From Candidatus Woesearchaeota archaeon (GTDB lineage Archaea > Nanobdellota > Nanobdellia > Woesearchaeales > DSVV01): 64,000 nucleotides of DNA. Made by a program: the position numbers and the translations under genes. Position 1 is the stretch's first letter; each line of letters opens with the position of its first letter. Location: NCBI GenBank assembly GCA_018303325.1, contig JAGVYH010000002.1, forward strand, positions 17,246-81,245. The letters run 5' to 3'. This document shows, piece after piece, positions 2,623 through 48,329 of this stretch. A model generated the notes under the pieces. That model was not told the origin of the DNA, did not search any database, and saw only the letters and a list, made by a program, of their open reading frames with translations.

Positions 2623-3885
2623 TTAAATTGTTTTTTTTAGTAGTTTCCTTCTCAATTTTGCTGCTAAACCCATAATTGACAAAGGAATAAGTTCTGCAAA
2701 CATGTGAAATGTCTTGGATGTTGCAATTTTAAAAATAAAGGATTCGAGTTTTATTCGTCTTCCTTCAGCATTTGTATGTTTCAGTGGACTTATACCATAA
2801 ATTGGCTTTTGGTTATACTCATCCATTCTCATAAATGCACCAATTTTTTTATGTTTAATATTATGTTCATGAGAATTGATAAGTTTTTCTAATGGAAGTT
2901 GTTTAAGATTGATACTGTTTTTTACAAGCTCAAGAAGAGTTTTCCCTCTTTCTGTTCTTATAATCATTGTACCCCATGGTTCCCGATTAAGCTCATCTAA
3001 CCAAATATCACCAAATGAAATATCACTAAATTCAGCCATATAGTCTATGCATATTAAACATCTTTTAGGAACAAACATTGTATCAACAATGTCATAATAA
3101 TATTTAGGTAAGAAATGGGTTTTGCTTATTTTTGGGTTTTTTGTTTTAATTAAAAAACCACCTGGCCATTTTCCACCTCTGTATTCAATACTCAGGATAT
3201 CTTTAAACTTAATGCCCTGTTTTCTTATCAGGAACTTTGTTGCATTATTTGAAACATTAAATCCACAAAATAATCCTAAAATATATTTAATGTTACTTAC
3301 ATTTTTATGTTTATTTTTTTGTAATTTTCTTATACCATGTATATGGCATGGCAGTCCGACAAAAGCTATTTTTTTGAACTGCCTTGTCTTTTTCAAAATA
3401 CTATTTAAGGAAATAAGTGTATACTTTGATCCCTTAGCATGATTAATATCGGAAAGATTGTCTACTATTGTTGCTGTACACATCCATGGTTTACTCTCAG
3501 ACATTGAAACTACAATAGCGCCGTCTATCAATTTTTTTTTGAATGCCTTTGAAAGAATCGTTGTGATTGCTCCGCCGGAAGATGCGCCATTTCTTGTGCC
3601 TAATTGTTTAGACTGCACTAAATACAATGAGCTATAACATCCTATTTTTTTGTTTACTATGCTATTATCACCAAATACAAGTTTGTTCATTTGCGGATAA
3701 TTAAATTCAATCCCTGGACAATTATTGTAGCATTGACTACATGAAATACATTTATCATTATCAAAAAGAATTTCCTCATTATTTGTATTTAATGCTTCAA
3801 CAGGACAAATCCCAACACATGTTCCACATTTATTGCATAACTCAGGATTAATATTTTTAAAATTTAATTTTTTCAAATTTTGCAT
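2623..3885 (-). CDS. 4Fe-4S ferredoxin-domain / coenzyme F420 hydrogenase beta-subunit (FrhB)-like protein
   Basis: N-terminal 2x CxxCxxCxxxCP clusters. Central GASSGGAITT and VGLPCHIHG motifs of the FrhB family. Confidence 0.6.
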   Translation of the reverse strand: MQNLKKLNFKNINPELCNKCGTCVGICPVEALNTNNEEILFDNDKCISCSQCYNNCPGIEFNYPQMNKLVFGDNSIVNKKIGCYSSLYLVQSKQLGTRNGASSGGAITTILSKAFKKKLIDGAIVVSMSESKPWMCTATIVDNLSDINHAKGSKYTLISLNSILKKTRQFKKIAFVGLPCHIHGIRKLQKNKHKNVSNIKYILGLFCGFNVSNNATKFLIRKQGIKFKDILSIEYRGGKWPGGFLIKTKNPKISKTHFLPKYYYDIVDTMFVPKRCLICIDYMAEFSDISFGDIWLDELNREPWGTMIIRTERGKTLLELVKNSINLKQLPLEKLINSHEHNIKHKKIGAFMRMDEYNQKPIYGISPLKHTNAEGRRIKLESFIFKIATSKTFHMFAELIPLSIMGLAAKLRRKLLKKTI

Positions 3886-18553: not shown

Positions 18554-20281
18554 ATGAATATTATTGCAATAATACCTGCAAGGGGTGGCTCTAAAGGGAT
18601 ACCTAAAAAAAATATTGCTTTGTTAGCTGGTAAACCATTGATTGCTTATACTATTGAGGAGGCAAAGAAATCAAAATATATTAATAGAATAATTGTGTCT
18701 ACTGATTCAGAAGAGATTGCAAATGTTTCTAGAGAATATGGGGCAGAGGTGATAATTAGACCTAAAGAACTGGCGCAAGATACAACACCAACTTTGCCGG
18801 TTTTAAAGCATGTATTGGAGAATGTTGAAAAAGAATATTGTGTGAATTTGATTGTTGTATTACAGCCTACTTCTCCCTTAAGAAAAGTTGAGTATATAGA
18901 TTTAGCAATTAAAAAATTAATGGATGAAAATTGTGATTCTGTTGTTTCTGTTTGCAAATTTGACCATTCCCCTGCTGCAATTGTTTCAGTTGAAGATGAT
19001 AAGCTTCAAATGACAAGTACAAACAGTAATAAATTTAGACGACAAGACTCAAATCTTTACTTGATTAATGGTGCGGTTTATGTAGTAAAGAGAGATATAA
19101 TGATGAAACTGGATAATTATATTGTTGGTGGTGATATAAGGATTATAGTTATGCCAAAGGAAGCTTCTGTTGATATAGATGAGCCAATTGATTTAAAATT
19201 AGCTGAATCTTTTTTAAAAGAAGATAAGGATAATATTACACATATAAAAATTGGAGATAAATTAATAGGAAAAGACCAGCCATGTTTTATCATCGCAGAA
19301 GCAGGCGTAAATCACAATGGTAATATAGAAATCGCAAAAAGGTTAATTGATGCTGCAATTGAAGCTAAAGCTGACGCAGTTAAATTTCAAACATTTAAGT
19401 CTGAGAATTTAGTGACTCAAAAAGCAGATATGGCAAGTTATCAGGAGAAGAATATTGGAAAAATAGAAACACAATTTGAAATGCTAAAAAAGTTGGAAAT
19501 GAAGTATTCAGATTTTGAAAGATTAAAAAAATATTGCGATGATAAAGGAATAATATTTCTTTCAACACCACACACTGAAGATGCATCTGAAGCATTAGTC
19601 GATTTAGTTCCTGCATTTAAACTTGGCTCTGGTGATTTAAACAATCTTCCTTTTCTTAAAAAAATTGCAAAATATGAAAAACCGATTATTCTTCCTACAG
19701 GAATGTCAACAATGAACGAAGTAAAAGAAGCATTGAAAACAATCTATAAAGAAGGAAATAAACAAGTGATTGCACTTCACTGCACAACAAATTATCCCTG
19801 CCCATATGAAGAAGTAAATTTAAAGGCAATGCAAGCAATGCAAAATGAGCTAGACTGTCTTGTTGGTTATTCTGACCACACCTTAGGTATAATTGTTCCT
19901 GTAATGGCAGTAACTTCAGGTGCTGTATTAATTGAAAAACATTTCACGCTTGATAAAAACATGGAAGGTCCAGATCATAAAGCGTCTCTTAATGCTAAAG
20001 AATTAAAAGAGATGGTTCAGCAAATACGCATAGCTGAAAAGTCCTTTGGCTCAAATGTAAAAGAACCAACAAAATCAGAATTAAGCATAATGAAGGTTGT
20101 AAGAAAAAGCATTGTTGCAAAAATAGATATTAAAAAAGGCAGTGTTATTACAGAATATATGCTAATTATTAAAAGGCCTGGCACAGGCATTGAACCGAAA
20201 TATATTAATACAATTGTTGGAAAAACAGCAAAAAAAGATATTACTAAAGATAAATTGATAAAAAGGGAGGATATAAAATGA
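18554..20281 (+). CDS. bifunctional CMP-nonulosonic acid synthetase (NeuA/LegF-like, N-terminal) and nonulosonic acid synthase (NeuB/LegI/PseI-like, C-terminal)
   Basis: N-terminal IIPARGGSKGIPKKN cytidylyltransferase motif. C-terminal NeuB TIM barrel (CFIIAEAGVNHNG) plus SAF domain. Confidence 0.9.
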   Translation: MNIIAIIPARGGSKGIPKKNIALLAGKPLIAYTIEEAKKSKYINRIIVSTDSEEIANVSREYGAEVIIRPKELAQDTTPTLPVLKHVLENVEKEYCVNLIVVLQPTSPLRKVEYIDLAIKKLMDENCDSVVSVCKFDHSPAAIVSVEDDKLQMTSTNSNKFRRQDSNLYLINGAVYVVKRDIMMKLDNYIVGGDIRIIVMPKEASVDIDEPIDLKLAESFLKEDKDNITHIKIGDKLIGKDQPCFIIAEAGVNHNGNIEIAKRLIDAAIEAKADAVKFQTFKSENLVTQKADMASYQEKNIGKIETQFEMLKKLEMKYSDFERLKKYCDDKGIIFLSTPHTEDASEALVDLVPAFKLGSGDLNNLPFLKKIAKYEKPIILPTGMSTMNEVKEALKTIYKEGNKQVIALHCTTNYPCPYEEVNLKAMQAMQNELDCLVGYSDHTLGIIVPVMAVTSGAVLIEKHFTLDKNMEGPDHKASLNAKELKEMVQQIRIAEKSFGSNVKEPTKSELSIMKVVRKSIVAKIDIKKGSVITEYMLIIKRPGTGIEPKYINTIVGKTAKKDITKDKLIKREDIK

Positions 20282-20919
20282 ATGTTCTTGTCGTAGCAGC
20301 ACATCCTGACGATGAAATATTGGGTGTTGGCGGAACTTTGTTAAAACACAGGCAAAAAGGAGATACTATTTATGTGTGCATTGTTACAAAGGCATATGAG
20401 CCACAATGGACAAAAGAATATATTGAGCAAAAAATTGTTGAGCAGAAGAAAGTTGATGAAGTGTTAGGTGTAAAAAAAAGATTTAATTTAAATCTTCTAA
20501 CAGTTAAGTTGAACACTTTGCCACATGGTGAGATTAATAAAAGAGTGGCTGATGTTATAGAAGAGGTCAATCCAGATATAGTGTATACCCATTTTGAAGG
20601 TGATATAAATTACGATCATACCATTGTTTTTAGGGCGTGTATGGTTGCCACAAGACCACCTAAACAAGTTAGATTATTATGTTTTGAAACGCCTTCTGAA
20701 ACAGAATGGAACAATAAGCCATTCAATCCTAATTTATGGATAAATATAAATGAATTCATAAACCAAAAGATAGAAGCATTTAAAATATATGAATTAGAAC
20801 TAAAAAAATATCCACACCCAAGAAGTTTAGAGGGTGTTAGAATTCTAGCAAAAAAAAGAGGATTAGAAATTTGTAAAGAATATGCAGAAGCATTTATTGT
20901 AGTGAGGGATTTTGGATAA
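20278..20919 (+). CDS. PIG-L/LmbE family de-N-acetylase
   Basis: AHPDDE zinc-binding motif at the N-terminus. ATGA overlap with the upstream gene. Confidence 0.8.
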   Translation: MNVLVVAAHPDDEILGVGGTLLKHRQKGDTIYVCIVTKAYEPQWTKEYIEQKIVEQKKVDEVLGVKKRFNLNLLTVKLNTLPHGEINKRVADVIEEVNPDIVYTHFEGDINYDHTIVFRACMVATRPPKQVRLLCFETPSETEWNNKPFNPNLWININEFINQKIEAFKIYELELKKYPHPRSLEGVRILAKKRGLEICKEYAEAFIVVRDFG

Positions 20920-21685
20920 AATGAACGTAATTTGGCTGTCAGCAAATAAATTGGGGTATGAACTATTAAAAGAAGCAGTTAAAATAAAAGAGGTTAATAT
21001 TATGGGCATTGTAACTTTAGATAAAGATGCTTCTACTGTTATGTATGATGCAGTTCCCGAAAAAGTGTGGAGTCAATTTGGTATTCCGATACATAAAATA
21101 AAGCGGTTAAATGAAGAAAAAGAATTAATTACAAAATTATCTCCTGATTTAATAATTATGTGTGGTTGGAGACAAATTGTTGATAAAGAGATAATAAACC
21201 TGCCTAAAGAAGGGTTTATAGGATTTCACCCAACATTGCTTCCTATCGGCAGAGGCCCAGCGCCAATAATAAATACCTTATTAAATGAGTTTAAGGAATC
21301 TGGATTGACTATGTTTTATGTAACAGAAGGATTAGACAATGGTGATATTATTGGGCAAGAGAAATTTGTTATTTATGAAGAAGATCATGCTCAAGAAGTA
21401 TATAATAAAGTAATACTTGCTGGACGAAAGTTAATACAAAAATATCTTCCTTTGTTAATAAAAGGTAAAGCACAAAGAAACCTACAAGATGAATCTAAGG
21501 CAACATTTTTTGAAAAATTAAGCTTAAAAGATAATGAAATAGATTTGAATAAAGAATCCCTTGAAATAATTTATAAAAAAATACGTGCCTTTTCTAAACC
21601 GTACAAAGGGGCATATATTAAAAGGAATGGTAAAAAATTAATAATATGGTCAGCAGAATTAATAGAAACAGATGGTGCAAAATGA
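20912..21685 (+). CDS. formyltransferase family protein (sugar N-formyltransferase, Fmt/ArnA-N-like)
   Basis: GFHPTLLPIGRG and DNGDII catalytic motifs of 10-formyl-THF-dependent formyltransferases. Confidence 0.8.
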   Translation: MDKMNVIWLSANKLGYELLKEAVKIKEVNIMGIVTLDKDASTVMYDAVPEKVWSQFGIPIHKIKRLNEEKELITKLSPDLIIMCGWRQIVDKEIINLPKEGFIGFHPTLLPIGRGPAPIINTLLNEFKESGLTMFYVTEGLDNGDIIGQEKFVIYEEDHAQEVYNKVILAGRKLIQKYLPLLIKGKAQRNLQDESKATFFEKLSLKDNEIDLNKESLEIIYKKIRAFSKPYKGAYIKRNGKKLIIWSAELIETDGAK

Positions 21686-22830
21686 GAAAAATTTGTGTTT
21701 TAACTGGAACTAGAGCAGAATATGGCTTGTTAAAACCAATTATACGAGCAATAAGAAATAATCCAGAATTAGAGCTTATTCTTATAGTAAGTGGGATGCA
21801 TTTATCAAGGAAATTTGGTGAGACAATTAATATAATTAAAGAAGATAATTTTGATATTAATTATACTTTTGAAATGAATCCTAAAGACGATAGTAACGAT
21901 GCTATGGCAATGGCAATAGGGATAGGAATACAAAAAATAGTTGATTGTTTTAAGAATTCTAATCCTGATATTCTTTTAATTTTAGGGGATAGAATTGAAG
22001 TTTTGGCTGGAGTTATTGCCGCTGCTTACATGAATATTGTGATTGCACATATACATGGCGGGGACATTACAAGAGCGGGGTTAGATGAATCGGCAAGGCA
22101 TGCTATTACTAAATTTGCCCATATTCATTTTCCTGCAACACAAAAAAGTGCTGAGAGAATTTTAAAAATGGGTGAAGATAAATGGAGAGTTCATGTTGTT
22201 GGTGCACCTGCGTTAGATACTATATTAAACACCCCACTACTAGAAAAAAAAGCATTAGAAAAGGAATTAAACCTTAAATTAAAAAAACCATTTATATTGA
22301 TGATACAACATTCGGTATCGACACAGCATAAAGATGCTGAGAAACAAATAAAGGAAACATTAGAAACAGTAAAAGAATTAAAATATCAAACATTGATAAT
22401 ATATCCTAATTCTGATACTGGCGGAAGGAAGATAATTAATCAGATTGAGTTATACGCAAAGGAGTTTCAGTTTATCAAAATATATAAAAATTTGCCGTAT
22501 ACTGTTTATTTAAGCTTAATGAAATATGCAGATGTAATGGTTGGAAACTCCAGCAGTGGAATCATTGAATCATCTTCTTTCAAATTGCCCGTAGTTAATA
22601 TTGGAATAAGACAAGAAGGAAGAGAAAGGTCAAATAATATAATTAATGTTGAACATAACAAAGAAAAGATAATCTTAGCTATTAAAAAAGCATTGTCTAT
22701 TACGTTTAGAAATTCCTTAAGAGACTGTAAAAACCCGTATGGAAATGGAAAAACTGCGCAAGAAGTAGTTAATGTTTTATCAAGTATTAAAATAAACAGC
22801 AAATTATTACAAAAAAAGATTACTTATTAA
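21682..22830 (+). CDS. UDP-N-acetylglucosamine 2-epimerase, hydrolysing type (NeuC/LegG-like)
   Basis: KICVLTGTRAEYGLL N-terminus typical of NeuC. ATG 21682 overlaps the upstream stop as ATGA. Confidence 0.85.
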   Translation: MRKICVLTGTRAEYGLLKPIIRAIRNNPELELILIVSGMHLSRKFGETINIIKEDNFDINYTFEMNPKDDSNDAMAMAIGIGIQKIVDCFKNSNPDILLILGDRIEVLAGVIAAAYMNIVIAHIHGGDITRAGLDESARHAITKFAHIHFPATQKSAERILKMGEDKWRVHVVGAPALDTILNTPLLEKKALEKELNLKLKKPFILMIQHSVSTQHKDAEKQIKETLETVKELKYQTLIIYPNSDTGGRKIINQIELYAKEFQFIKIYKNLPYTVYLSLMKYADVMVGNSSSGIIESSSFKLPVVNIGIRQEGRERSNNIINVEHNKEKIILAIKKALSITFRNSLRDCKNPYGNGKTAQEVVNVLSSIKINSKLLQKKITY

Positions 22831-22831
22831 C

Positions 22832-23392
22832 ATGAAATTAACAATTAGAAAGAAAATCTCTCCTATAAGAGATGGCTTAACAAAAAAAACAATTGAAAAA
22901 AAAAGCAGATTAATTTTAATTAATCTTATTAAGATGAGTATATTTAAAAATTCAAAAAATATAAGTTGTTATGTATCACAAGATTCTGAAGTAGATACCC
23001 ATCGGTTGATTAAACTAATAATACAAAGTAAAAGAAAAGTAATTGTACCTTTTGTTGACAAGGAGATGAATTGTGCGGAATTATTTGATTTTAATAAATT
23101 AATGAGAGGTAAATTTGGGATATTAGAACCAAAAGAAAAAAAGAGATTTAACAAAGACATGTTGGACTTAATAATTATTCCTGGTGTTGTTTTTGACAGG
23201 AAAGGTAATCGGATTGGAAGAGGCAAAGGATATTATGATAAATTTTAAAAAAAAGTTAAATCAAAAAAAATTGCTCTTGCTTATGATTTACAAGTGTTTG
23301 AAAATATCCCATTTGAACATCATGATATAAAAATGGATTATATAATAACAGAATCAAAGATAATAAATTGTGAAGAGATTAGGGCAAAATGA
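22832..23392 (+). CDS. 5-formyltetrahydrofolate cyclo-ligase (MTHFS family), interrupted by an in-frame TAA at 23246-23248
   Basis: GRGKGYYD motif occurs before the stop. The conserved C-terminal ...IALAYDLQVF...HDIKMDYIITE continues in the same frame after the stop and ends in an ATGA overlap with folD. Confidence 0.6.
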
Positions 23393-24261
23393 CAGCTAAA
23401 ATTATTGACGGAAAAAAAATAGCAGAAGGTATTAAGGAAAAGTTAAAATTTCAGATTGAAGGATTAACTATTAAACCATGCCTTGCTGTTATTTTAGTAG
23501 GCAATAATCCCGCTTCAAATGTTTATGTTAATATGAAGGAAATTGAATGCACAAAATTAGGTATAATATTAAAAAAATATTGTCTAAAAGAGAATTTATT
23601 GGAAGAGAAATTGTTAAATTTAATCAAAGCTCTTAATAACGATGTTCATGTTCATGGCATATTGGTTCAGTTGCCTTTACCATCACATATTGATGAATTT
23701 AACATTATTGAAGCCATTGAACCAAAAAAAGATGTAGATGGATTTCATGCAATTAATATGGGTTGTTTGTTTATTGGAACTCCTAAATTTGAGCCTTGTA
23801 CACCTAAAGCAATAATAGAAATGATTAACTCAACAAATATAACAATTGAGGGAAAACATGCAGTAATTGTTGGAAGAAGCAAGATTGTTGGTAATCCAGT
23901 AGCACAGCTACTCCTACAACATAATACGACAGTAACAATTTGTCACTCCAAAACACACGATCTTAAAGAATATACAAAGCAAGCAGACATTTTGGTTGTA
24001 GCTGTGGGTATACCACATCTCATAAAAGAGGATATGATTAAAGAAGGCGCAATTGTAATTGATGTAGGTGTTAATAGAATAGAGGATATTACATATAAAA
24101 AAGGATATTATTTATGCGGAGATGTTGATTTTGAGAAAGTTATAAATAAGGCATCATACATCTCTCCTGTACCTGGTGGCGTTGGTCCAGTAACAATAGC
24201 GATGTTAATGTCAAATACCTTAAAAGCGTATCATCTAATTGAAAATGGAAAAGCGATTTAA
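23389..24261 (+). CDS. folD: bifunctional methylene-THF dehydrogenase / methenyl-THF cyclohydrolase
   Basis: Full-length FolD with HGILVQLPLP and GRSKIVG motifs. Confidence 0.9.
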   Translation: MTAKIIDGKKIAEGIKEKLKFQIEGLTIKPCLAVILVGNNPASNVYVNMKEIECTKLGIILKKYCLKENLLEEKLLNLIKALNNDVHVHGILVQLPLPSHIDEFNIIEAIEPKKDVDGFHAINMGCLFIGTPKFEPCTPKAIIEMINSTNITIEGKHAVIVGRSKIVGNPVAQLLLQHNTTVTICHSKTHDLKEYTKQADILVVAVGIPHLIKEDMIKEGAIVIDVGVNRIEDITYKKGYYLCGDVDFEKVINKASYISPVPGGVGPVTIAMLMSNTLKAYHLIENGKAI

Positions 24262-24652
24262 AGAGTGGAAAAAGCCTGAAATTAAAGATGGAGAATTGAC
24301 TAAATGGAATTGGGTTGTGCAACATATTAATGGGCTTAAACTTGGAGAATATACAGATATAGGCGCATTTACTTATATCAATGCAAAGTATGGTGTTGAA
24401 ATTCAAGATGATGTTCAAATTGGAAGCCATTGCTCAATATACAGCCACAGCACAATTGATAATAAACAAGGTAAGATAACTCTTAAAAAAAATTGCAGAA
24501 TTGGTTCACATTGTGTTATAATGCCAGGAGTAACTATTGGAGAAAATTCAGTTATAGGTGCGTTTAGTTTTGTAAATAAAAATATTCCTGATAATGTAAT
24601 TGCTTATGGTGTTCCTGTTAAGATTAAAGAAAACAGCAACAATAATAAGTAA
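24239..24652 (+). CDS. hexapeptide-repeat acetyltransferase (LegH/PseH-position N-acetyltransferase)
   Basis: Left-handed beta-helix hexapeptide repeats. Confidence 0.8.
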   Translation: MKMEKRFKEWKKPEIKDGELTKWNWVVQHINGLKLGEYTDIGAFTYINAKYGVEIQDDVQIGSHCSIYSHSTIDNKQGKITLKKNCRIGSHCVIMPGVTIGENSVIGAFSFVNKNIPDNVIAYGVPVKIKENSNNNK

Positions 24653-24703
24653 TAAGTCAACCTTGAAATGAAGCTCGTTTTAGCTGCGGTTTAGGTAAAA
24701 TCA

Positions 24704-24798
24704 AAGTTTTGTTTATACTAAAAGCACAAAATAATCGAACATTATTTTGTGCTTTTGTATATACAAAAGCAATTAATTTGTTCGAAAATTAATTGCTT
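24704..24798. repeat. Family A double-hairpin intergenic repeat, copy A1
   Basis: Two adjacent roughly 18-bp-stem hairpins: TACTAAAAGCACAAAATAAT...ATTATTTTGTGCTTTTGTATA and TACAAAAGCAATTAATTT...AAATTAATTGCTTTTAGTATA. Confidence 0.7.
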
Positions 24799-24893
24799 TT
24801 AGTATATAAACAAAAGTTGCGGACTTATTACATACAACAATAAGAGATAGTATTTGTAGATTTATAATACAATTATCGTTAGAGGATATTAAA

Positions 24894-26018
24894 ATGGAGA
24901 TTATACCATTAGCAAAACCATATATAGGAAACGAAGAGATTGAAGCAGTTTGTGAGGTTTTAAAATCCGGATGCTTAAGCCTAGGTCCAAAGTTAGAAGA
25001 ATTTGAAGAAAGATTTGCAAAATTTGTGGGTGTTAGATATGCTATTGCAGTCAGCTCTGGCACAACAGGGTTGCACTTGTGTATGGCAAATTTAAACTTA
25101 AAACAAGGGGATGAAGTAATTACAACACCATTATCGTTTGTTGCATCTGCAAATTGCATTTTGTATATGAATGCTAAACCAGTCTTTGTTGATATTGATC
25201 CATTGACATTGAACATTGATCCAAAAAAGATAGAAAATGCAATTACATCCAAAACAAAAGCAATTTTGATTGTTCATATATTTGGAATGCCATGTGATAT
25301 GGATCCAATTATAGAAATTGCAAAGAAGTACAATCTCCTAATTATAGAAGATGCTTGTGAAGCATTGGGAGCAGAATACAAAGGCAAGAAGGTTGGTACT
25401 TTTGGTTTGGCATCAGTGTTTGCATTCTATCCAAACAAACAAATTACAACTGGTGAAGGTGGGATGATATGTACAAATAGTCAAGAAATTTATACTCTTT
25501 GTAAAAGTTTAAGGAATCAAGGAAGACCTGTTGACTCAAGTTGGTTAGTTCATGAAAGAGTTGGATTTAATTATAGATTAAACGAAATAAGCTGTAGTTT
25601 AGGAATTGAACAGTTAAAAAAAGTTGAGTTAATTCTTAAAAAAAGAGAAATTGTTGCAGAAACGTATAACCAATTACTTGATGGAACAGATGGAGTCGTT
25701 ATTCCATATAAATCAGATATTGCAAAACGAAGTTGGTTTATTTACTTTATCATTCTTTCAGAATATTTAAAAAGAGATGAACTATCCCAGAAATTAGATA
25801 AAAAAGGGATTAAAACAAAACCATACTTACCTTGTATACATCTACAACCAGCATATGTTAGATTATTTGGGTATAAAAAAGGAGATTTTCCAGTATGTGA
25901 AAAAATTAGTGAACATACACTAGCATTACCTTTTTTTACAGATATGAATAAAGAGACTATTGAGAAAGTTTGTAGTGAACTAAAGAGAGAGATTAAAGAT
26001 GTTTTTTCAACTAACTAA
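24894..26018 (+). CDS. DegT family aminotransferase (LegC/PseC-like UDP-4-keto-6-deoxy sugar aminotransferase)
   Basis: PLP aminotransferase fold and position next to the 4,6-dehydratase. Confidence 0.9.
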   Translation: MEIIPLAKPYIGNEEIEAVCEVLKSGCLSLGPKLEEFEERFAKFVGVRYAIAVSSGTTGLHLCMANLNLKQGDEVITTPLSFVASANCILYMNAKPVFVDIDPLTLNIDPKKIENAITSKTKAILIVHIFGMPCDMDPIIEIAKKYNLLIIEDACEALGAEYKGKKVGTFGLASVFAFYPNKQITTGEGGMICTNSQEIYTLCKSLRNQGRPVDSSWLVHERVGFNYRLNEISCSLGIEQLKKVELILKKREIVAETYNQLLDGTDGVVIPYKSDIAKRSWFIYFIILSEYLKRDELSQKLDKKGIKTKPYLPCIHLQPAYVRLFGYKKGDFPVCEKISEHTLALPFFTDMNKETIEKVCSELKREIKDVFSTN

Positions 26019-27042
26019 AAGATCAACATTCGGTGGTAAGATTATTCTTGTTACTGGTGGCTTAGGTTCTATTGGCTCAGAAATTGTAAGGCAATTGCTG
26101 AAATATAACCCTAAACAGGTACGAATATTTGACAATAGAGAAACTGAAACTTTTTTTATGCAACATGAGCTTAAACAGCACTCAAATCTTCGCTTTTTAG
26201 TCGGTGATGTAAGAGATAAAGATAGGCTTAATATGGCAATGGAACATGTAAACATTGTTTTTCATGCTGCTGCTTTAAAACATGTTCCGCTTTGCGAATA
26301 CAATCCATTCGAAGCTGTTAAAACTAATGTTTATGGTACCCAAAATATAATTGATACTGCTTTAACAAACAATGTAGAGAAAGTAGTAAATATTAGTACA
26401 GACAAAGTAACTAATACTATAAATACCATGGGTGCTACTAAGTTACTGGCTGAAAGGCTTATTTCGTCAGCTCAATATTTTAAAGGCAATAAAAAAACAA
26501 TTTTTTCATCAGTCAGATTTGGAAATGTGATAGATTCTAGAGGATCAATTATTGACCTTTTTAAAAAACAAATTAAACATGGTGGACCGGTTACAATTAC
26601 AAATCCAGATATGACTAGATTTGTTATGTCAACTAAACAGGCAGTTAATCTTGTTTTGAAAACTGCTGAAGAAATGCATGGGGGAGAAATTTTTATTTTG
26701 AAGATGCCGATATTTAAATTAAATGATTTAGTGGAAGTGGTTATAGAAGAGTTATCTTATAAAGAGGGATATGACTCAAAGAACATAAAAATAAAAAATA
26801 TAGGTATTAGAGAAGGTGAAAAATTATATGAAGACCTTATGACAGAGGTTGAAGCACAGAATTCATTAGAAACACAGACTAAATTTATTGTCCTATCAAA
26901 ATTAGGACTGCCAAATTATAAAGGACACCAGAAAAATTATAAAGCAATTAAAACAATAAAAGAACGATATTCTTCAAGGGATATCAAACCATTATCAAAA
27001 GAATTGTTAAAGAGGATACTTGTAAATGAAAAGATAATTTAA
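25999..27042 (+). CDS. UDP-GlcNAc 4,6-dehydratase, polysaccharide biosynthesis CapD/PseB/LegB family
   Basis: KIILVTGGLGSIGSEI Rossmann motif and SDR-extended fold. Confidence 0.85.
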   Translation: MFFQLTKRSTFGGKIILVTGGLGSIGSEIVRQLLKYNPKQVRIFDNRETETFFMQHELKQHSNLRFLVGDVRDKDRLNMAMEHVNIVFHAAALKHVPLCEYNPFEAVKTNVYGTQNIIDTALTNNVEKVVNISTDKVTNTINTMGATKLLAERLISSAQYFKGNKKTIFSSVRFGNVIDSRGSIIDLFKKQIKHGGPVTITNPDMTRFVMSTKQAVNLVLKTAEEMHGGEIFILKMPIFKLNDLVEVVIEELSYKEGYDSKNIKIKNIGIREGEKLYEDLMTEVEAQNSLETQTKFIVLSKLGLPNYKGHQKNYKAIKTIKERYSSRDIKPLSKELLKRILVNEKII

Positions 27043-27059: not shown

Positions 27060-28694
27060 CTACGTTTTTATTGTTTTATTGTAGTATTTGTGTTTTAGCA
27101 TGTCTAAAGCCAAATCTGAAATTCTTTCATTAACTTTACCGTCAATCTTATACACTTGATCTTTGACAAATAAATTTCTTTTTTCTTTTAACTTTTTTTG
27201 TAAATTAATGTTATTATTAACATCTTCTAATATGGTCATTAAATTATCGATATTATCTATTAATAGAACAGCACCAGAATCAACATAGGGTTTAAATGGT
27301 AAAAAATTGTTTATTTCCTTAGGTATCAAACCCATAACTGTTTTATTTAAGATGAGAGCTTCAAGAATAACTGTGCAATTAGAGAAAGCAACTACGTAAT
27401 CTGACAATGTTATTGCGTCATAAATATTAAACTCTTTTTTTATAAAGACATTATCTACACCCCTTATCATTTTAACGTATTCACTTATGTAACTGTCGCG
27501 TGGGTGTGGTTTAATGAAAAGTGCAAATTCTTTTTTATCTTTGAAGCTGTTCACTATCCTACTTAATATAGATAATGCAACCTCTTTTGTAAGATCTGCA
27601 ACAGTTGCATACAATACTATTTTTTTTCCAGATAATTTTAATAAGTATATATCTGGATCCCTATTTTCTATATTTTTATCTTCAATTTTTCTAAACAAAA
27701 AATCAGTATTTGGCTGTCCAACAATCTCAATGTTTTTTTCATCGTATCCGTCATAACCAATAAGTTTCTTCTTTGTAAATTCGCCATAAACTGCAATTTT
27801 GTCAGGCATTGGACAGCCTCTTAAAACATCTTCTTTTGAATGTACATAATATAATGTGTCATCTATCAGCCCTTCTTGTATCTCTAACACAGGCACATTT
27901 AAAGAGTGAGCAGCAGCAGTTATTGCCTTGCCTTGTAATGTTGATCCTGACATCTGTATTACTAATTTTGGTTTCATTAATTTTATAGCTTTTTTTGTTG
28001 TTTCTATATAGAATATTGCTTCACCAATCATTTTTTTTAAAACAAAATCAAGCCTGTCTTTTAATAAATGGTATGCATTTTCATTATTAATAATAAATGC
28101 AGAAGTAAAGTCTATACTTTTCATCATCCTATTGTATAAACTAAGAAATTTTTTTCTTTGCTGTTGAATTATTTTAGTTGTTTCATAATCATAAAAAAGT
28201 TCAATAGGATTTACAAAAGTATACCTTTTTCTTTGTTCTCTTGTCTTTAACCCAAAAGAAGCAAGATCATCATAATACAAAACATTTATTTCTGTTTGCT
28301 TGTTTAAATCATCAATTATACTGCCTATTCTTACGTTCCTTCCACTTTGAAGAAAAGAAGGGTGTGTAGTAACCAGTATATTACATGGATAAATATTATT
28401 TCTGCCAATGGTTCTTTTTCTCAGACGAGTCTTTAAATCAAAAGAATAGTTCATCAGAAGTGTACCCAACCTATGCTTTATTTCTTCTGTTTTTTTAATT
28501 TTTTCATTTCTTTTGTAAAAAATATCAGAGACGGATGGAAAATATTTGCTATCTCGATCCAACCATGGCTCAACAAGCCACCATAAAGAGATATTATCAT
28601 ACTTAAATAGCTCAGCAATATCTTTATGGTAATATACTTTTTTTTTTGAAAATTGTTTAACCCAAATTATTACTTTGTCCATTTTTAACAACAT
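27060..28694 (-). CDS. GT-B-like glycosyl/glycerophospho-transferase (TagB/TagF or capsule-biosynthesis-like), putative nonulosonic-acid transferase
   Basis: C-terminal KIVLYATV...KPHPRD resembles CDP-glycerol glycerophosphotransferases. Function is uncertain. Confidence 0.45.
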   Translation of the reverse strand: MLLKMDKVIIWVKQFSKKKVYYHKDIAELFKYDNISLWWLVEPWLDRDSKYFPSVSDIFYKRNEKIKKTEEIKHRLGTLLMNYSFDLKTRLRKRTIGRNNIYPCNILVTTHPSFLQSGRNVRIGSIIDDLNKQTEINVLYYDDLASFGLKTREQRKRYTFVNPIELFYDYETTKIIQQQRKKFLSLYNRMMKSIDFTSAFIINNENAYHLLKDRLDFVLKKMIGEAIFYIETTKKAIKLMKPKLVIQMSGSTLQGKAITAAAHSLNVPVLEIQEGLIDDTLYYVHSKEDVLRGCPMPDKIAVYGEFTKKKLIGYDGYDEKNIEIVGQPNTDFLFRKIEDKNIENRDPDIYLLKLSGKKIVLYATVADLTKEVALSILSRIVNSFKDKKEFALFIKPHPRDSYISEYVKMIRGVDNVFIKKEFNIYDAITLSDYVVAFSNCTVILEALILNKTVMGLIPKEINNFLPFKPYVDSGAVLLIDNIDNLMTILEDVNNNINLQKKLKEKRNLFVKDQVYKIDGKVNERISDLALDMLKHKYYNKTIKT

Positions 28695-30183
28695 CTATTC
28701 GTTTACAAATATCCTTTATTTCAGTTATAGTGACAACCTTAAGCACAAAAAGAGAAAGTATATAAAATATCAGTGCAACAATAATTGCAATTAATGCATT
28801 TAGTTCATTTAAGCCAAACAATAATATTGTTAAGTTTACAACTATTAAAAATACCGCCCCTGCAATAATGGTCTTAAGCCAGATTATAAATGGTATATTT
28901 AACTGAATTTTTGATTTAATATTTTTAAATGATGCAATAAACATGAACAAATAGCAGATTAATGTTGCTAAAGCAGCACCGATTATATTAAAAAAAGGAA
29001 TAAGTATCGCATTAAGCACAATATTAAGAAGTGCAGCAATAAAACTAGTTTTTGTGTTTAGTTCTGGCTTTCCAATACCTGCAAGCACAGCATAGTTTAT
29101 TTGAGCAACTGAAAGAATAAATATGCCTATTGATAATATTTTTAAAGTATTATTTGCTCCTATATATTCTTGCCCAAACAGAGTTTTAATGATTATTTCT
29201 GAAAAAAAGATCAAAATAATAAGAATAGGTATAAAAATAATGAATGAATATTTATATATCAAAACAATTCCCTGGCTTAAGTGTTCCATGTGTTTTTTTG
29301 ACCAAAGCTCTGAGCTCAAAGGATAGATTACATTTCTAAAACCAATTGTAATATAAGCTAAAAAATTAGCAGTTGGTAATGCAATATTATATAATCCTAC
29401 ATAAAAAACACCTGAAAAAAGCGTAAGCATTATTATGTCTGTGTAGGTTATAATAACACCAAAACCAACACCTAAAAAAGTGGGTATGGCAAATCTAAAT
29501 AGCCTTTTTAATAGTGGTTTATTATAATTTATTTTTATTAAGAAGAAATTAGGAAATACTTTTTTAAAGAAAATAAAAGAATAAATTGTTATTGTCAGAA
29601 CAGGCGCAAGTATGTAAGCATAACTTATACCAATCAATCCTAAGCCAAGCTTAAGAAATACATATGTAAGTGCAAATATAAATACTGACTTGAAAAGACC
29701 AATTGTTGAAAAAAGAATCATTTCTTGGTAGCCTTGGAATGTTTGTTTTAATAATAACTCTCCACCATAAAGAATAAAAGAAATCGCAACTAAAATAATT
29801 AAAGGCATTGATGCTACATCATGAATATAATTTTTTGCTAAAAATCCAGAGAATATAATGAATAGAATAAATATAATTATTGACATTATAAATCCGATAA
29901 TAGTAACATAAACAAAAGACTCTTTGATGGATTTTTCGTCTTTATTTACTTTAAATTCCGGGATAAATTTTGTAAGACTTTCATAGAAGCTTATATCACG
30001 AAAACTGTATATTAATGCAACAAGTGAAAATACAGAGAAAAAAAGTCCATACTCTTCTACTGTAAGGCTCCTTGCAAGAAATATTCTGTAAATATAACTT
30101 ACAAGTGCTGCTGATAAAGTAAATATTGTTATTATAATAAAATTTTTTATTGCTTTTTTAGTGTAATTTTGTGTTTCCATCAC
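28657..30183 (-). CDS. Wzx-like oligosaccharide flippase (MOP superfamily polysaccharide biosynthesis protein)
   Basis: About 14 TM helices and N-terminal RIFLARSLTVEEYG motif. Confidence 0.75.
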   Translation of the reverse strand: MMETQNYTKKAIKNFIIITIFTLSAALVSYIYRIFLARSLTVEEYGLFFSVFSLVALIYSFRDISFYESLTKFIPEFKVNKDEKSIKESFVYVTIIGFIMSIIIFILFIIFSGFLAKNYIHDVASMPLIILVAISFILYGGELLLKQTFQGYQEMILFSTIGLFKSVFIFALTYVFLKLGLGLIGISYAYILAPVLTITIYSFIFFKKVFPNFFLIKINYNKPLLKRLFRFAIPTFLGVGFGVIITYTDIIMLTLFSGVFYVGLYNIALPTANFLAYITIGFRNVIYPLSSELWSKKHMEHLSQGIVLIYKYSFIIFIPILIILIFFSEIIIKTLFGQEYIGANNTLKILSIGIFILSVAQINYAVLAGIGKPELNTKTSFIAALLNIVLNAILIPFFNIIGAALATLICYLFMFIASFKNIKSKIQLNIPFIIWLKTIIAGAVFLIVVNLTILLFGLNELNALIAIIVALIFYILSLFVLKVVTITEIKDICKRIDVVKNGQSNNLG

Positions 30184-39756: not shown

Positions 39757-39778
39757 AAATATAAAAAAAAGATATAAT

Positions 39779-39912
39779 TATACTAAAAGCACAAAATAAT
39801 CAAACATTATTTTGTGCTTTTGTATATACAAAAGCAATTAATTACAAACTGGGTATTATGCCCCGCAGCTTGCTGCGACACCCAGTTTGTAATTAATTGC
39901 TTTTAGTATATA
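39779..39912. repeat. Family A copy A2, with a 47-bp GC-rich nested hairpin inserted in the second hairpin loop
   Basis: Same two stems as A1. Insert is ACAAACTGGGT...GCAGCTTGCTGC...ACCCAGTTTGT. Confidence 0.7.
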
Positions 39913-41423: not shown

Positions 41424-41807
41424 ATGGAAGAGCAACTAAAGAACGTGCTCATTGTTGATGATGAGCCGCATATTGTGAATTTGATTAAGCTTAGCTTAAA
41501 CAAAGACAAGTATAGTGTGATTGGCGCTTATTCTGCGAGAGAAGCATTGATGCACATTAATAAGACAACACCGGATATTGTTGTTTTAGACTTGATGATG
41601 CCTGGTGTAAATGGGTATGAACTATGCAAAGCATTAAGAGAAAACCCTAAAACACAGAATATACCTATTTTAATATTAAGCGCTAAGAGCCAGATGAATG
41701 ACAAACTGCATGCAATTGATGTAGGTGCAGATGATTACATGACAAAACCATTTGATCCGATGGAGCTTATTAAAAGAATCAAGCTAAACCTAAACATGGC
41801 ACAATAA
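41424..41807 (+). CDS. stand-alone response regulator receiver (CheY-like)
   Basis: VLIVDDEP, phospho-acceptor VVLDLMMPG and MTKPF motifs. Confidence 0.85.
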   Translation: MEEQLKNVLIVDDEPHIVNLIKLSLNKDKYSVIGAYSAREALMHINKTTPDIVVLDLMMPGVNGYELCKALRENPKTQNIPILILSAKSQMNDKLHAIDVGADDYMTKPFDPMELIKRIKLNLNMAQ

Positions 41808-41904
41808 ACAAAAAAAGGGATTGTTCGACATATAAAATTTTACATATGTTTTACGTTATCTCCAACGATATTTTACGTCTAACATTAAACATTCAATTAA
41901 ACAG

Positions 41905-42924
41905 GTGATTACCATAAAAAACAATAATGATGAAATAAAAGATAAAATAATTGAATTCCTGAAAACAACAACTATTGGAGAGCCATCTACTGAGATTTCC
42001 AAACAGATAGGGCATAACAGGTTAACTATCTCAAAATATCTGGAGGTTCTTCAGGCACAGGGCATTGTCACAAACCAGGAGATGGCACAGGCAAAACTGT
42101 GGAAACTTGCAGAGGAAGAAAAAATTCCCAGCATATTAATAGTCGACGATGAACCTCATGTAGTTAATCTTATCAAGCTAAGCCTAAACCCCGACAAATT
42201 CAAGGTATTTGAGGCATATTCAGGAAATGAAGCATTGGAAATAATAAGAAGCAACAAGATTGATTTAGTTGTTTTAGATTTAATGATGCCAGGAATGACT
42301 GGCTTTCAGGTCTGTAAAATTTTAAAACAAAACCCATTGACGTCAAATATTCACGTGATTATTTTAAGTGCAAAAGGCGAAATAAAAGATAAGATTAATG
42401 GTATAGAGCATGGCGCAGATGATTACATCACCAAACCATTTGATCCGCTGGAATTAGAAGCGAGGATAAGCTTAAGCCTAAAACATCCTGCAACTAATGA
42501 CTCCAAACATCCTGTAACAAAACTTCCAACAAAAAAAAATATCGAGGAGCAGCTGCATAATTTTATGTTTGAGAACAAGGATTTTCATGTATACAGCTTT
42601 AACTTAACTGGTCTTGACAAATTTGCAGAAAAGAAAGGGCATAAGAAAGTAAATGAGCTGCTTGTTTTGTTTACAAGACTGCTTAATAATAATATCTTGG
42701 AAAAAGAGTGTTTTTTAGGGCATACAATTTCAAACAGTTTTGTTGTTATCGGAGATATTAAAGGGCTTGACGACGAAATATCTAAAGAATTCAGGAAAAT
42801 ACTGCCGTACATCGATGAGCAGTCTCAAAGCTTAAAGCTGGATGTTAACAAGCTCAGCAATAAAGAGATACTGCAAAGAAATATTCATGCAACAGATGTG
42901 CTAAAAGAGATAAAAGTATCATAA
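41905..42924 (+). CDS. response regulator: winged-HTH, receiver and degenerate GGDEF-like domain
   Basis: N-terminal HTH (TISKYLEVL). REC domain (ILIVDDEP...VVLDLMMPG). C-terminal GGDEF fold start (LTGLDKFAEKKGHKKVNELL) with GGDEF replaced by ISNSF. GTG start. Confidence 0.7.
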   Translation: MITIKNNNDEIKDKIIEFLKTTTIGEPSTEISKQIGHNRLTISKYLEVLQAQGIVTNQEMAQAKLWKLAEEEKIPSILIVDDEPHVVNLIKLSLNPDKFKVFEAYSGNEALEIIRSNKIDLVVLDLMMPGMTGFQVCKILKQNPLTSNIHVIILSAKGEIKDKINGIEHGADDYITKPFDPLELEARISLSLKHPATNDSKHPVTKLPTKKNIEEQLHNFMFENKDFHVYSFNLTGLDKFAEKKGHKKVNELLVLFTRLLNNNILEKECFLGHTISNSFVVIGDIKGLDDEISKEFRKILPYIDEQSQSLKLDVNKLSNKEILQRNIHATDVLKEIKVS

Positions 42925-42943
42925 TTTTTTAGATTAAAAACAG

Positions 42944-44563
42944 TTGAGTTTAAAGTATATGGCACTTTCAGTAAAAAATAAACTGCTGGCAATGATTATG
43001 TTTTTAGTAGCTATGGCAGTATTTCTTTTTGGGGTTTATCTTCTTTATTTTTTTAATATAACACAATTTAATGCCACCGGCAATATTGTATTGGAAACTT
43101 CGCAAGAAAATACAAATGATAATAATAATAACCTAAAAAATATCAACAGTATCAACAACAATATAGGATTAGAAAATCTAATTATTGTAGGATTAGGAAT
43201 TATTGTGAGTTTGGCATTGGTTGGGTTAGCACTGATACAAATAATGATAAGACCATTGGATAAAGTGATTATTGGAACGCAGCTTGTTGCAAAAGGCGAG
43301 TTTCCTCAAATAGAAAAAACCAGCAACGACGAATTTGGAAGATTGGTTACTTCATTCAATCAAATGGTTGATAAGCTAAAAGAAGGAGAAAAAGAAGAAA
43401 AAAAAGCAAAAGGCATTGCAACAAAAGAAAAGACCAAGTCAGAACTGATTATAGAATCTATGGCTGAAGGGGTAATTGTCACAAACAAAGAACACAAGAT
43501 AAGCGTGTTCAACAAAGCAGCAGAGAATATATTTAACATTGAACAGAAAAAGGCATTAGGCCGGCACATACTGCAGCTAAACAAGTATGGAATTAATAAT
43601 ATTTATCTTGATCCGAAAAAGATTTGTGAAATTGATGAAAGTGTTGATGGGAAAATAAGCAAAGTATACAAAAATATTGAGTTTAAGATAAAACATCTTG
43701 ACAAAATCGTTGGCGCTACAATTTCTCCATTAACAGACGAGAAAGATAAGTTTTGCGGGTCTGTATGTGTGTTAAGAGATATAACAAACACAAAAAGAAC
43801 GGACAATATGAAGTCAGAGTTTATCAGCACAGTAAGCCATGAATTAAGAACCCCATTGACAAGCATAAAAGGCTACGCATCACTGCTTAATCTTGAGAAG
43901 CTTGGCAATATTAATTATCAGCAGTCAAATGCAATCAAAGTAATAAACCAAGAATCTGACAGGTTAATGGCAATAATAGACCAGCTGTTGGACATATCTA
44001 AATTAGAGGAAGGTTATAAGCTTAATATTCAAAAAACAAAGATTGGCGAATGCATAGATAATTCTCCTGCGCTTGAAACTGCAAAGAAAAAGAATATTTC
44101 TGTACAGAAAAACCTGCAAAATCTGCCTGAAATAGAAATCGACAAAAACAGGATAACAGATGTGTTTACCAATTTAATATGCAATGCGGTGAAATACAGT
44201 AAAGAAGGCAGCAGTATAAGGATTACAGCAAAAAAAAGAAATAAGAACATTCAATTCGATGTGATTGATAAGGGAATAGGAATAAAAAAAGATGATTTAA
44301 ATAAAGTATTTGAAAAATTTTATCAGGCAGAAGATCCTATGATAAGGCAGCAGGGCGGCTCTGGATTAGGGTTATCTATCGTCAAAAAAATCATAGAACT
44401 GCATAACGGCACAATAAATATACAAAGTGAATTTGGTTATGGGACAACTATTAGTTTTACGCTGCCATTGAAGTTCAATAATAATAAGATTAATGATGAT
44501 AATAAAAATAGTAAGTATAATAATTATAATTATATTAATAATCAAAGGGATAATAAGCTTTAA
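42944..44563 (+). CDS. sensor histidine kinase (TM-HAMP-PAS-HisKA-HATPase)
   Basis: H-box SHELRTPLTSIKGY and G-box GGSGLGLSIV. Asn-rich low-complexity tail. Confidence 0.9.
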   Translation: MSLKYMALSVKNKLLAMIMFLVAMAVFLFGVYLLYFFNITQFNATGNIVLETSQENTNDNNNNLKNINSINNNIGLENLIIVGLGIIVSLALVGLALIQIMIRPLDKVIIGTQLVAKGEFPQIEKTSNDEFGRLVTSFNQMVDKLKEGEKEEKKAKGIATKEKTKSELIIESMAEGVIVTNKEHKISVFNKAAENIFNIEQKKALGRHILQLNKYGINNIYLDPKKICEIDESVDGKISKVYKNIEFKIKHLDKIVGATISPLTDEKDKFCGSVCVLRDITNTKRTDNMKSEFISTVSHELRTPLTSIKGYASLLNLEKLGNINYQQSNAIKVINQESDRLMAIIDQLLDISKLEEGYKLNIQKTKIGECIDNSPALETAKKKNISVQKNLQNLPEIEIDKNRITDVFTNLICNAVKYSKEGSSIRITAKKRNKNIQFDVIDKGIGIKKDDLNKVFEKFYQAEDPMIRQQGGSGLGLSIVKKIIELHNGTINIQSEFGYGTTISFTLPLKFNNNKINDDNKNSKYNNYNYINNQRDNKL

Positions 44564-44577
44564 GAGGGAGGCAAAAA

Positions 44578-44952
44578 ATGGTTAAGACCCTTAAGATTCT
44601 TATTGCAGAGGATGAAGAAAATATAGTGAATCTTATCAGACTGATATTGGGCGATAAATATGAATTAGTTGTAGTAAATGACGGCGAGGAAGCAATTAAG
44701 CTGGCAGAGAACTTAAAACCTGATTTAATCATACTGGATGTAATGATGCCTAAGATAAACGGATTTCAGGTTTGTGAAACATTAAAGAAAGATAAAAGAA
44801 CTAACCAAATTAAAATAATCTTCCTCAGCGCAAAAGTGATGAAAAATGATGTCAGTAAAGGATTAAGCTGCGGCGCAATTGATTACATAAAAAAACCATT
44901 TGAGCCCGAAGAGTTTGAGAGGAGAATAAAATCTGCTATAGAACTAAGGTGA
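44578..44952 (+). CDS. stand-alone response regulator receiver
   Basis: ILIAEDEE, LIILDVMMP and IKKPF motifs. Confidence 0.85.
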   Translation: MVKTLKILIAEDEENIVNLIRLILGDKYELVVVNDGEEAIKLAENLKPDLIILDVMMPKINGFQVCETLKKDKRTNQIKIIFLSAKVMKNDVSKGLSCGAIDYIKKPFEPEEFERRIKSAIELR

Positions 44953-45080
44953 AATGAAAATTGACTGAAGAAATAAAGAGAATTGAAGAAAAAATTGAAG
45001 AGGCGAAAATATAGAGAAAATAGCAGATTACAACAATAGAGATTTGAACTTGTTTTGCTATTAATACAAATGGTGGGAAT

Positions 45081-48000: not shown

Positions 48001-48329
48001 TTTTCAACCTTATCGGCAATGCAATCAAATTTACACCAAAGAAAGGCAGCATTTATGTGAATATTGAAAATATAGAAAATGAAATAAAAGTAACAATAAA
48101 AGACACAGGCATAGGAATAAAAAAAGAAATTGTACCAAAGATATTTGATAAGTTCTTTCAAGTTGACAGCTCAATGACAAGAGAGCATGGAGGCACAGGT
48201 TTAGGGCTGCCCATCTCGAAACATATCATTGATGCGCATAAAGGGAAGATTTTTGTCGAGAGCGAGGTAGGAAAAGGAAGCAGTTTTATATTTACACTGC
48301 CGATACAGAAAAAGATAGAAGAAGATTGA
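45081..48329 (+). CDS. large multi-sensor (GAF/PAS-rich) histidine kinase, 1082 aa
   Basis: Repeated GAF-like blocks. H-box SHELRTPLTSIKGY and HATPase GGTGLGLPISK at the C-terminus. Confidence 0.9.
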   Translation: MEYKLNTCCLMSINEIIDIMNHEKGHKQQLLELAKHINSIIPNDHLSFSTVDEDKRIGSLYNVQSDIHSNSKKKEPITEYNITYKKESREENNETFKQVNSIFSSHEIINHILTEKKPFIIPFNESISDTHINKKRADKQIKELLICPILYNDKIIGTINFTSYEEEVYNKGHIDFLKSITDLLNSYTTNIWTIHKLEETIERYNVLFDTSSKGIIICDEKGLIKTINEKFTEIVEISKEELKEKQDVKDVFGDAVNNAINKAIENKDKKESRQKVVRLKKIYFETRNGEKKFIELSIIFLAKTKEMLISVYDVTALYETENKLEEQNAIFKNLYSISKALQNTDDMEEIFQITIKAFRNEGYDRVRIYTYDEDEKILIGKKASDIDDSDMADIKLRIEEKHEKVYHCFTKKEPIITKNKQTTTFYKLLKKEDVLETASIPLLSGDKVLGMVSLDNKQSKKPLHIDELNTLIPIANQIAIAIENAILHQEDRKKLKKLTAMYDVSMSLSKIFDLEKILNLVIIKIVKIIGCDMCTINFLDATKEYFIPKSIYSHSHEYFKKGRVSVNQSVCGLAIKTNQTIFIENVIKEPLYANKLFAKKEQLRSMLSIPLITQDEAIGTINIYTKKTKKYSKDEIDLLKGLANQAALSIRNCELYDNLNKEMDVLSNILETSQSINAQLNLDNLLKITFEKTIELTKADSGILLLLKDDFLEIKLTKGYAKEKASIIRIKKDEGISGWVARNGKPLIIANVKDDKRYVEINKKTVSEAAIPLIKAGKVIGVLNFESSNYDNFRRFEKPLEILTNQIAIAIENAKLYHEISLFNETLKNEVYMATKELVEKNKELERMAQLKSDFVSNVSHELRTPLTSIKGYSKLLLEGRLGEVPEKQVQCLKIILEETDRLTRLINEILDLAKLEKGKVKFKKEKINIEEVAQKVIETLTTLADDKDIKIHFTPTGKIFNIAASQDLIKQVFFNLIGNAIKFTPKKGSIYVNIENIENEIKVTIKDTGIGIKKEIVPKIFDKFFQVDSSMTREHGGTGLGLPISKHIIDAHKGKIFVESEVGKGSSFIFTLPIQKKIEED

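Follow-up and report, generated by a model that had tools for sequence, protein, structure and literature searches.

The 5-formyltetrahydrofolate cyclo-ligase (MTHFS) family is represented by the profiles PF01812 and TIGR02727 and by the structures PDB 1sou, 2jcb, 1ydm and 3hxt. With its two parts joined, the translation of the locus described here is a typical full-length member of this family; the frame as it stands, however, is broken at codon 139. With programmed readthrough and recoding, as in viral leaky stops and Sec/Pyl, the locus shares an in-frame stop after which conserved coding sequence goes on in the same frame. UAA is the stop codon least prone to readthrough. Transcriptional slippage, reportedly described by Tamas and colleagues in 2008, is said to rescue homopolymer-tract lesions in AT-rich endosymbionts, the lesions being frameshifts in long poly(A). 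An AT-rich reduced genome and a lesion in an A-rich tract are features common to those cases and to the present one.

The sequence analysed here, referred to as the window, is a stretch of 64,000 nucleotides carrying the NCBI label 'Candidatus Woesearchaeota archaeon'. The evidence presented below makes it very likely that its MTHFS gene is a very young pseudogene, in which a recent change of TTA (Leu139) to TAA became fixed in one clonal groundwater population of Woesearchaeota (DPANN).

The interrupted MTHFS gene

The N-terminal open reading frame begins with ATG at 22832 and encodes 138 amino acids, the last of which, by direct reading of the sequence, are GRGKGYYDKF. Coordinates and frame reading agree with the original prediction that the TAA at 23246-23248 lies inside the MTHFS frame, and the codons around it are GGA TAT TAT GAT AAA TTT TAA AAA AAA GTT AAA TCA. 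About 30 nucleotides around the stop are given as GAUAAAUUUUAAAAAAAAGUUAAAUCA, and the stop-bearing stretch also as AAAUUUUAAAAAAAAG. Past the TAA the same frame runs on for 47 sense codons, KKVKSKKIALAYDLQVFENIPFEHHDIKMDYIITESKIINCEEIRAK, up to a TGA at 23390-23392 that overlaps the folD ATG (23389-23391) as ATGA; the peptide encoded by the tail is exemplified by IALAYDLQVFENIPFEHHDIK. The unshifted continuation of the frame and its overlap with folD had both been predicted, and the sequence bears them out. The features of the interrupted gene are as follows.

22832..23248 (+): 5' portion of MTHFS, its 138 codons followed by the premature TAA; PF01812 2-145/186, E 6e-31.
23243..23254 (+): T4A8 homopolymer junction TTTTAAAAAAAA containing the stop, with T5A7 as the likely ancestor; the substituted base matches its neighbour at the run boundary.
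23246..23248 (+): premature in-frame TAA at codon 139, in place of a conserved Leu; TTA in the closest intact orthologue, Leu139 in at least 90% of homologues.
23249..23392 (+): presumed untranslated MTHFS 3' remnant, 47 intact in-frame codons plus TGA; assigned by PF01812 155-186 (E 2.9e-7), conservation, a structural model and pN/pS 0.25 over codons 140-180.
23294..23392 (+): 32-amino-acid GTG-initiated ORF, 'hypothetical protein' (MBS3121396.1, J4434_00750), called by some pipelines; no upstream Shine-Dalgarno-like sequence.

From their profile matches, the N-terminal piece and the tail are to be read as two parts of one gene. Translated with Leu at position 139, the joined frame matches PF01812 over positions 2-186 of 186 with 150.8 bits (cut-off 27) and the TIGR02727 equivalog over 1-182 of 182 with 168 bits (cut-off 84.9), and the 47-residue tail by itself exceeds the gathering score of PF01812. 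The downstream piece is indeed the conserved C-terminus of MTHFS, as had been proposed, but its size was overstated: it is a quarter of the protein (47/186 residues) and not half. Forty-seven open codons would be expected by chance with a probability of about 2-4%, estimated from the stop-codon frequency of the window or from its base composition (31% G+C) and leaving homology uncounted; with homology added to these odds, the observation is well beyond chance. In the NCBI records the 138-amino-acid MTHFS piece is annotated as a complete protein (MBS3121395.1). Downstream of the stop the candidates for an in-frame restart are GTG at 23294 and ATG at 23333, and the JGI and NCBI pipelines both call the 32-amino-acid ORF at 23294-23392, which is an annotation by-product of the interrupted MTHFS tail.

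The codon expected at the stop can be specified closely. Leucine occupies position 139, within the motif GxGxGYYD[RK]FL, in at least 90% of homologues in two alignments of 27 and 59 sequences. The closest intact orthologue (P0001, on locus L011) is 77% identical, has 186 amino acids and aligns codon for codon without gaps; its codon 139 is TTA, in the context TTT TTA AAA GGA as against TTT TAA AAA AAA in the window. The expectation of Leu at the TAA, with TTA one substitution away, is therefore upheld by the alignments and by the orthologue, the comparison with orthologues having been proposed as a check. The simplest history, judged from these sequences, would be one T to A change at 23247 that converted T5A7 to T4A8. 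Residues G129, G131, G133, Y134, D136 and D165 are invariant in both alignments, Gln154 is invariant among the 27 sequences and at least 90% conserved among the 59, and all of these are present in the window sequence. An uninterrupted MTHFS frame of ~180-200 amino acids is not found here, the TAA falling at codon 139; the best 120 homologues have 172-206 amino acids, and none is split or truncated at this site.

Residues lost with the C-terminal segment

The ungapped orthologue was modeled with AlphaFold2 (mean pLDDT 95.5, pTM 0.90). Beyond residue 138 the model places the last turn of a helix at 134-139, strands at 145-149, 170-172 and 177-179, and a terminal helix, and PDB 1sou aligns straight across the stop (query 2-179). 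The lost segment carries Asp165, which both alignments show as invariant, together with the invariant or almost invariant Gln154. The role assigned to these C-terminal residues is based on conservation and on the AlphaFold2 model, and from these the 138-amino-acid product is predicted to be very probably inactive and probably misfolded.

Reproducibility of the stop

An identical 138-amino-acid product is found on at least 24 contigs and in 33 index blocks of the ENA, JGI, Logan and NCBI collections, derived from many runs and samples and from several assemblers. All fetched loci (10/10) match the window at 100% identity throughout the gene, with the TAA inside the same T4A8 tract; the sources of the contigs include SRR2090161, SRR2090162, SRR2177954, SRR3990169, SRR3989338 and three ANAN16 samples, together with JGI 3300025311 and 3300009296, ERZ27254756 and one NCBI MAG. 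In the 90% cluster, variants that differ by one residue (D55A; Gly to Val) share the same end, ...YYDKF. A repaired 186-amino-acid Leu allele was absent from an exact look-up in ~15 billion proteins, and homology searching found no relatives between 77% and 100% identity. The DNA patterns of the allele survey are found in the window and in the 10 resampled loci. Two DNA patterns each gave no matches in metagenome_contigs and genome_contigs, collections that lack this population, so that these blanks are uninformative.

The sampled contigs are a resampling of one essentially clonal population. The base call is accordingly reproducible, yet the contigs provide no independent evolutionary replicate. 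One scaffold, ANAN16 SAMN03202999 scaffold_99950 (1350-1426 of the fetched locus L008, ~window 22628), has ~77 nucleotides before a 10-N run that are unlike the window; this mismatch at the epimerase 3' end is a strain variant or a scaffolding artefact, and the MTHFS stop is unchanged there.

Constraint on the sequence downstream of the stop

Compared with the orthologue, the 138 codons upstream of the stop have pN 0.121 and pN/pS 0.30, and the downstream core (codons 140-180) has pN 0.109 and pN/pS 0.25, a difference that is not significant (Fisher p = 0.51). The final six residues belong to a tail that is variable across the whole MTHFS family. For excess nonsynonymous change downstream the 95% upper bound is 0.061 per site, and dS is ~0.59; set against each other, these values limit any unconstrained period to at most ~14% of the divergence path from the orthologue. 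Neither a further stop or indel nor relaxed constraint was detected in the tail. The lack of detectable relaxation would fit a very recent event and is not positive evidence of decay.

These results bear on the age of the lesion as it was originally discussed. Long-standing decay, which had been argued against, is excluded, the downstream nonsynonymous excess being absent and the family-conserved residues kept. A recent nonsense mutation, one of the possibilities raised, is supported by the TTA of the orthologue and by the retention of constraint and conserved residues in the tail. The retained ATGA coupling, which had been offered as an argument in the same direction, proves weak: it is unchanged ancestral sequence, and in the orthologue MTHFS and folD do not overlap and are 5 nucleotides apart, so that retention of the overlap says little about function.

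Alternative explanations for the in-frame stop

An error of sequencing or assembly at the homopolymer boundary, with T5A7 (TTA) as the true sequence, had been listed among the possibilities. Consensus errors are conceivable at a junction of two homopolymers, but the same sequence recurs across many independent runs and samples and with different assemblers (at least 24 contigs), TAA is present at every fetched locus and a TTA allele is recorded nowhere; error is effectively excluded as an explanation. The search for TTA, which would have marked the stop as such an error, found no such allele among the assembled data. Reassignment of TAA to sense throughout the genome, or its efficient suppression there, has virtually no probability, and the original suggestion of genome-wide TAA recoding is rejected. 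Nothing speaks for it beyond the single MTHFS site, whereas TAA is the main terminator of the window: the 52 non-nested ORFs of at least 100 amino acids end in TAA (26, MTHFS included), TAG (13) or TGA (13). TAA ends 25/51 of the other ORFs, whose Pfam matches extend to the profile ends, and frames are shut at a median of ~10 codons past TAA (8 past TAG, 5 past TGA). Six other genes have long open stretches after the stop (29-96 codons), none with a Pfam match below E 0.01, so that the long extensions remaining after TAA are without homology and not protein-like; a second internal TAA in a conserved gene was not seen among the window ORFs. ARAGORN found no tRNA genes in the window or in two fetched flanks reaching ~10 kb past each end (L015 and L016; ~84 kb in all), so that this stretch speaks neither for nor against a suppressor tRNA with anticodon UUA. 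All three standard stop codons are in use in this organism. In Pfam and NCBIfam scans the ~52 ORFs showed near full-length profile coverage and no other split or truncated gene, and the MTHFS lesion is isolated; the many decay-like lesions that had been considered as a possible finding were not seen in the window. A phase-variable switch, in which the homopolymer tract would toggle a gene of the surface-glycan cluster in the manner of bacterial contingency loci, could draw on the position of the gene within a nonulosonic-acid glycan island and of the lesion inside the T4A8 tract. It is most improbable, however, as the lesion exchanges one base, with neither the frame nor the length changed, tract-length variants occur in 0/10 loci, every truncated product on record stops at the same residue, and A/T runs of at least 8 are common (46 in 64 kb).

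Leaky expression would have a near-cognate tRNA read the UAA, or compensating -1 and +1 slips occur on U4A8, giving enough full-length enzyme for selection to act upon; on balance this is unlikely. In its favour, the tail is intact: no conserved residue is lost and pN/pS is 0.25. The stop lies inside a slippery-looking U4A8 tract and is followed by A; reading of the sequence indicates that a -1 shift would give UUA (Leu), after which a second slip of +1 on the A-run would bring the frame back. A young pseudogene, however, predicts an intact tail equally well. The stop, moreover, lacks the conservation among orthologues that programmed readthrough would lead one to expect, the closest orthologue having a TTA Leu codon and Leu being present at this position in at least 90% of both alignments. 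RNA structure 3' of the stop is at chance level (fold of 23240-23340, z = 0.21 against shuffles), no Rfam match lies near the stop, and TAAA is the commonest context of ordinary terminators in the window (11/26 TAA stops, that of MTHFS included). Direct reading of the sequence also indicates that each single +1 or -1 shift on U4A8 meets a stop within 3-4 codons, so that two rare events would be needed. A literature search on archaeal UAA readthrough turned up nothing relevant. Rescue by a single +1 or -1 frameshift was considered and dismissed, given these quick stops and the departure from the conserved frame, as was a hop like that of T4 gene 60 from UUU 23243 to UUU 23297, which would skip 17 conserved codons including strand 145-149 and Gln154. 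As the intact tail is equally compatible with continued translation, leaky readthrough keeps a small residual probability; the fuller proposal, that the UAA in U4A8 is passed by readthrough or by a -1 shift onto UUA and then a +1 shift, with full-length MTHFS still made and under selection, would seem rather less probable still. If true, a DPANN archaeon would naturally tolerate suppression of UAA or slip twice, a case of moderate interest for translation research; none of the findings points in that direction. That the gene works in pieces, the 138-amino-acid product being active alone or paired with a C-terminal peptide from GTG 23294 or ATG 23333, is very improbable. The callers do report the 32-amino-acid ORF from GTG 23294 and the ATP-binding GxGxGYYD motif stays in the N-terminal piece, but neither restart codon is preceded by a Shine-Dalgarno-like sequence, initiation at 23294 would leave out strand 145-149 and Gln154, the truncation costs three strands and the invariant Asp165, and none of the best 120 homologues (172-206 amino acids) is split or truncated here.

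folD and the one-carbon context

MTHFS lies in an operon with folD and with a formyltransferase.

20912..21685 (+): sugar-type formyltransferase of the same operon; Formyl_trans_N/C matches, with ArnA-like and fmt-like matches below equivalog cut-offs.
23389..24261 (+): folD (methylene-THF dehydrogenase / methenyl-THF cyclohydrolase), intact by its profile matches; its ATG overlaps the original MTHFS stop (ATGA).

A partial Shine-Dalgarno sequence, AGGG, is found at -8 to -5 of folD, inside the MTHFS tail; genes internal to the operons here often have GAGG or GGAGG. The operon encodes, in order, a CMP-transferase/NeuB fusion, a PIG-L deacetylase, the sugar-type formyltransferase, a NeuC-type UDP-GlcNAc 2-epimerase and the broken MTHFS, followed by FolD, a hexapeptide acyltransferase, a DegT aminotransferase and a PseB-like dehydratase. 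The MTHFS-FolD pair is thus embedded in a NeuB/NeuC-type nonulosonic-acid operon, 18554-27042 (+), adjoining the formyltransferase. The pair sits here in a glycan cluster, whereas more distant relatives (L012, L014) have an MTHFS-SHMT-FolD one-carbon module beside purine and nucleoside genes. This arrangement suggests a dedicated supply of 10-formyl-THF for an N-formylated sugar; the formyltransferase at 20912-21685 likely consumes 10-formyl-THF from the one-carbon module, and the MTHFS-FolD pair would appear to support that supply to its neighbour. Loss of MTHFS may be tolerable because FolD makes 10-formyl-THF directly and MTHFS only salvages 5-formyl-THF.

The surface-glycan island at positions 1-38000 is very large, and for a small DPANN genome it represents a heavy investment. 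It contains three B12-binding radical SAM paralogues (6153, 12007, 30369), four DegT-family aminotransferases (14203, 24894, 31856, 33845), several methyltransferases and glycosyltransferases, a flippase (28657-30183) and an FrhB/FdhB-like Fe-S protein (2623-3885). A 66-bp intergenic element occurs twice, at 24713-24778 and 39778-39843 (+), with 98.5% identity; it has a perfect hairpin, AAAAGCACAAAATAAT...ATTATTTTGTGCTTTT, with which another inverted repeat, CAAAAGCAATTAATT...AATTAATTGCTTTT, is nested; the loop of this second repeat differs between the copies. The element may serve as a terminator or a regulatory site, or may be a small mobile element.

Host assignment and other features of the window

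The NCBI label of the window is supported by PTH2 and an archaeal-type class I LysRS within it, and PCNA is present just past the window end on a contig of the same population. A 523-amino-acid RpoD-like bacterial sigma-70 factor with regions 2, 3 and 4 (RpoD_Cterm 292 bits) is encoded at 50353-51924 (-), on a contig of otherwise archaeal character. Castelle et al. 2021 (PMC8204110) reported that sigma-70 genes are prevalent in Woesearchaeota and state that mis-binning was ruled out. A bacterial origin, considered on account of the sigma-70 factor, was rejected given that report (PMC8204110) and the presence of PCNA, PTH2 and the archaeal-type LysRS on contigs of the population. The window also carries a two-component signalling block, dense for a DPANN archaeon, at 41424-48329 (+) and 53622-54170 (-), made up of four response-regulator receiver proteins, a HAMP-PAS histidine kinase and a 1082-amino-acid kinase with four matched GAF-domain stretches.

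Proposed history and comparison with known systems

In 'dislocation' mutagenesis, transient misalignment of the template during replication leaves a base at a homopolymer edge replaced by a copy of its neighbour. The MTHFS lesion may have arisen by such a route, with transient misalignment of the template at the homopolymer boundary and copying of the neighbouring base: a T to A change at 23247, at the junction of the T-run and the A-run, would have turned the Leu139 codon into a stop, and the nonsense allele would then have become fixed in the clonal population. Translation would end after residue 138, with loss of the three strands, Gln154 and Asp165, leaving an enzyme that is very probably inactive. 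The 47 downstream codons would be the remnant of a young pseudogene, too recent for decay, and folD stays intact, probably initiating from its own weak Shine-Dalgarno motif. A nonsense pseudogene is recognized by an early stop where a sense codon is conserved, by orthologues that are intact and by missing essential residues, and this locus shows all three. For annotation, MBS3121395.1 and MBS3121396.1 would be better merged as one recently inactivated gene, a single pseudogene. The locus offers a small, clean example of early gene loss in a reduced DPANN genome, one homopolymer-junction substitution being fixed across many samples.

In comparison with the systems introduced above, programmed readthrough and recoding differ from the MTHFS locus in that the stop here is unconserved and has neither a stimulatory RNA structure nor a dedicated recoding element. 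The slippage rescue of endosymbionts differs in that the MTHFS frame is unchanged, the defect being a stop codon, which a single slip could not remove. The closest likeness is to the ordinary nonsense pseudogene of reduced, host-dependent prokaryotes, with which the locus shares a single stop, intact orthologues, recognisable downstream sequence and the absence of any other lesion in the region. From that class it stands apart in being unusually 'fresh', with no second lesion, constraint that is not detectably relaxed and a retained start overlap, and in being represented in public annotation as two normal genes. The phenomenon itself is ordinary and of an already known kind.
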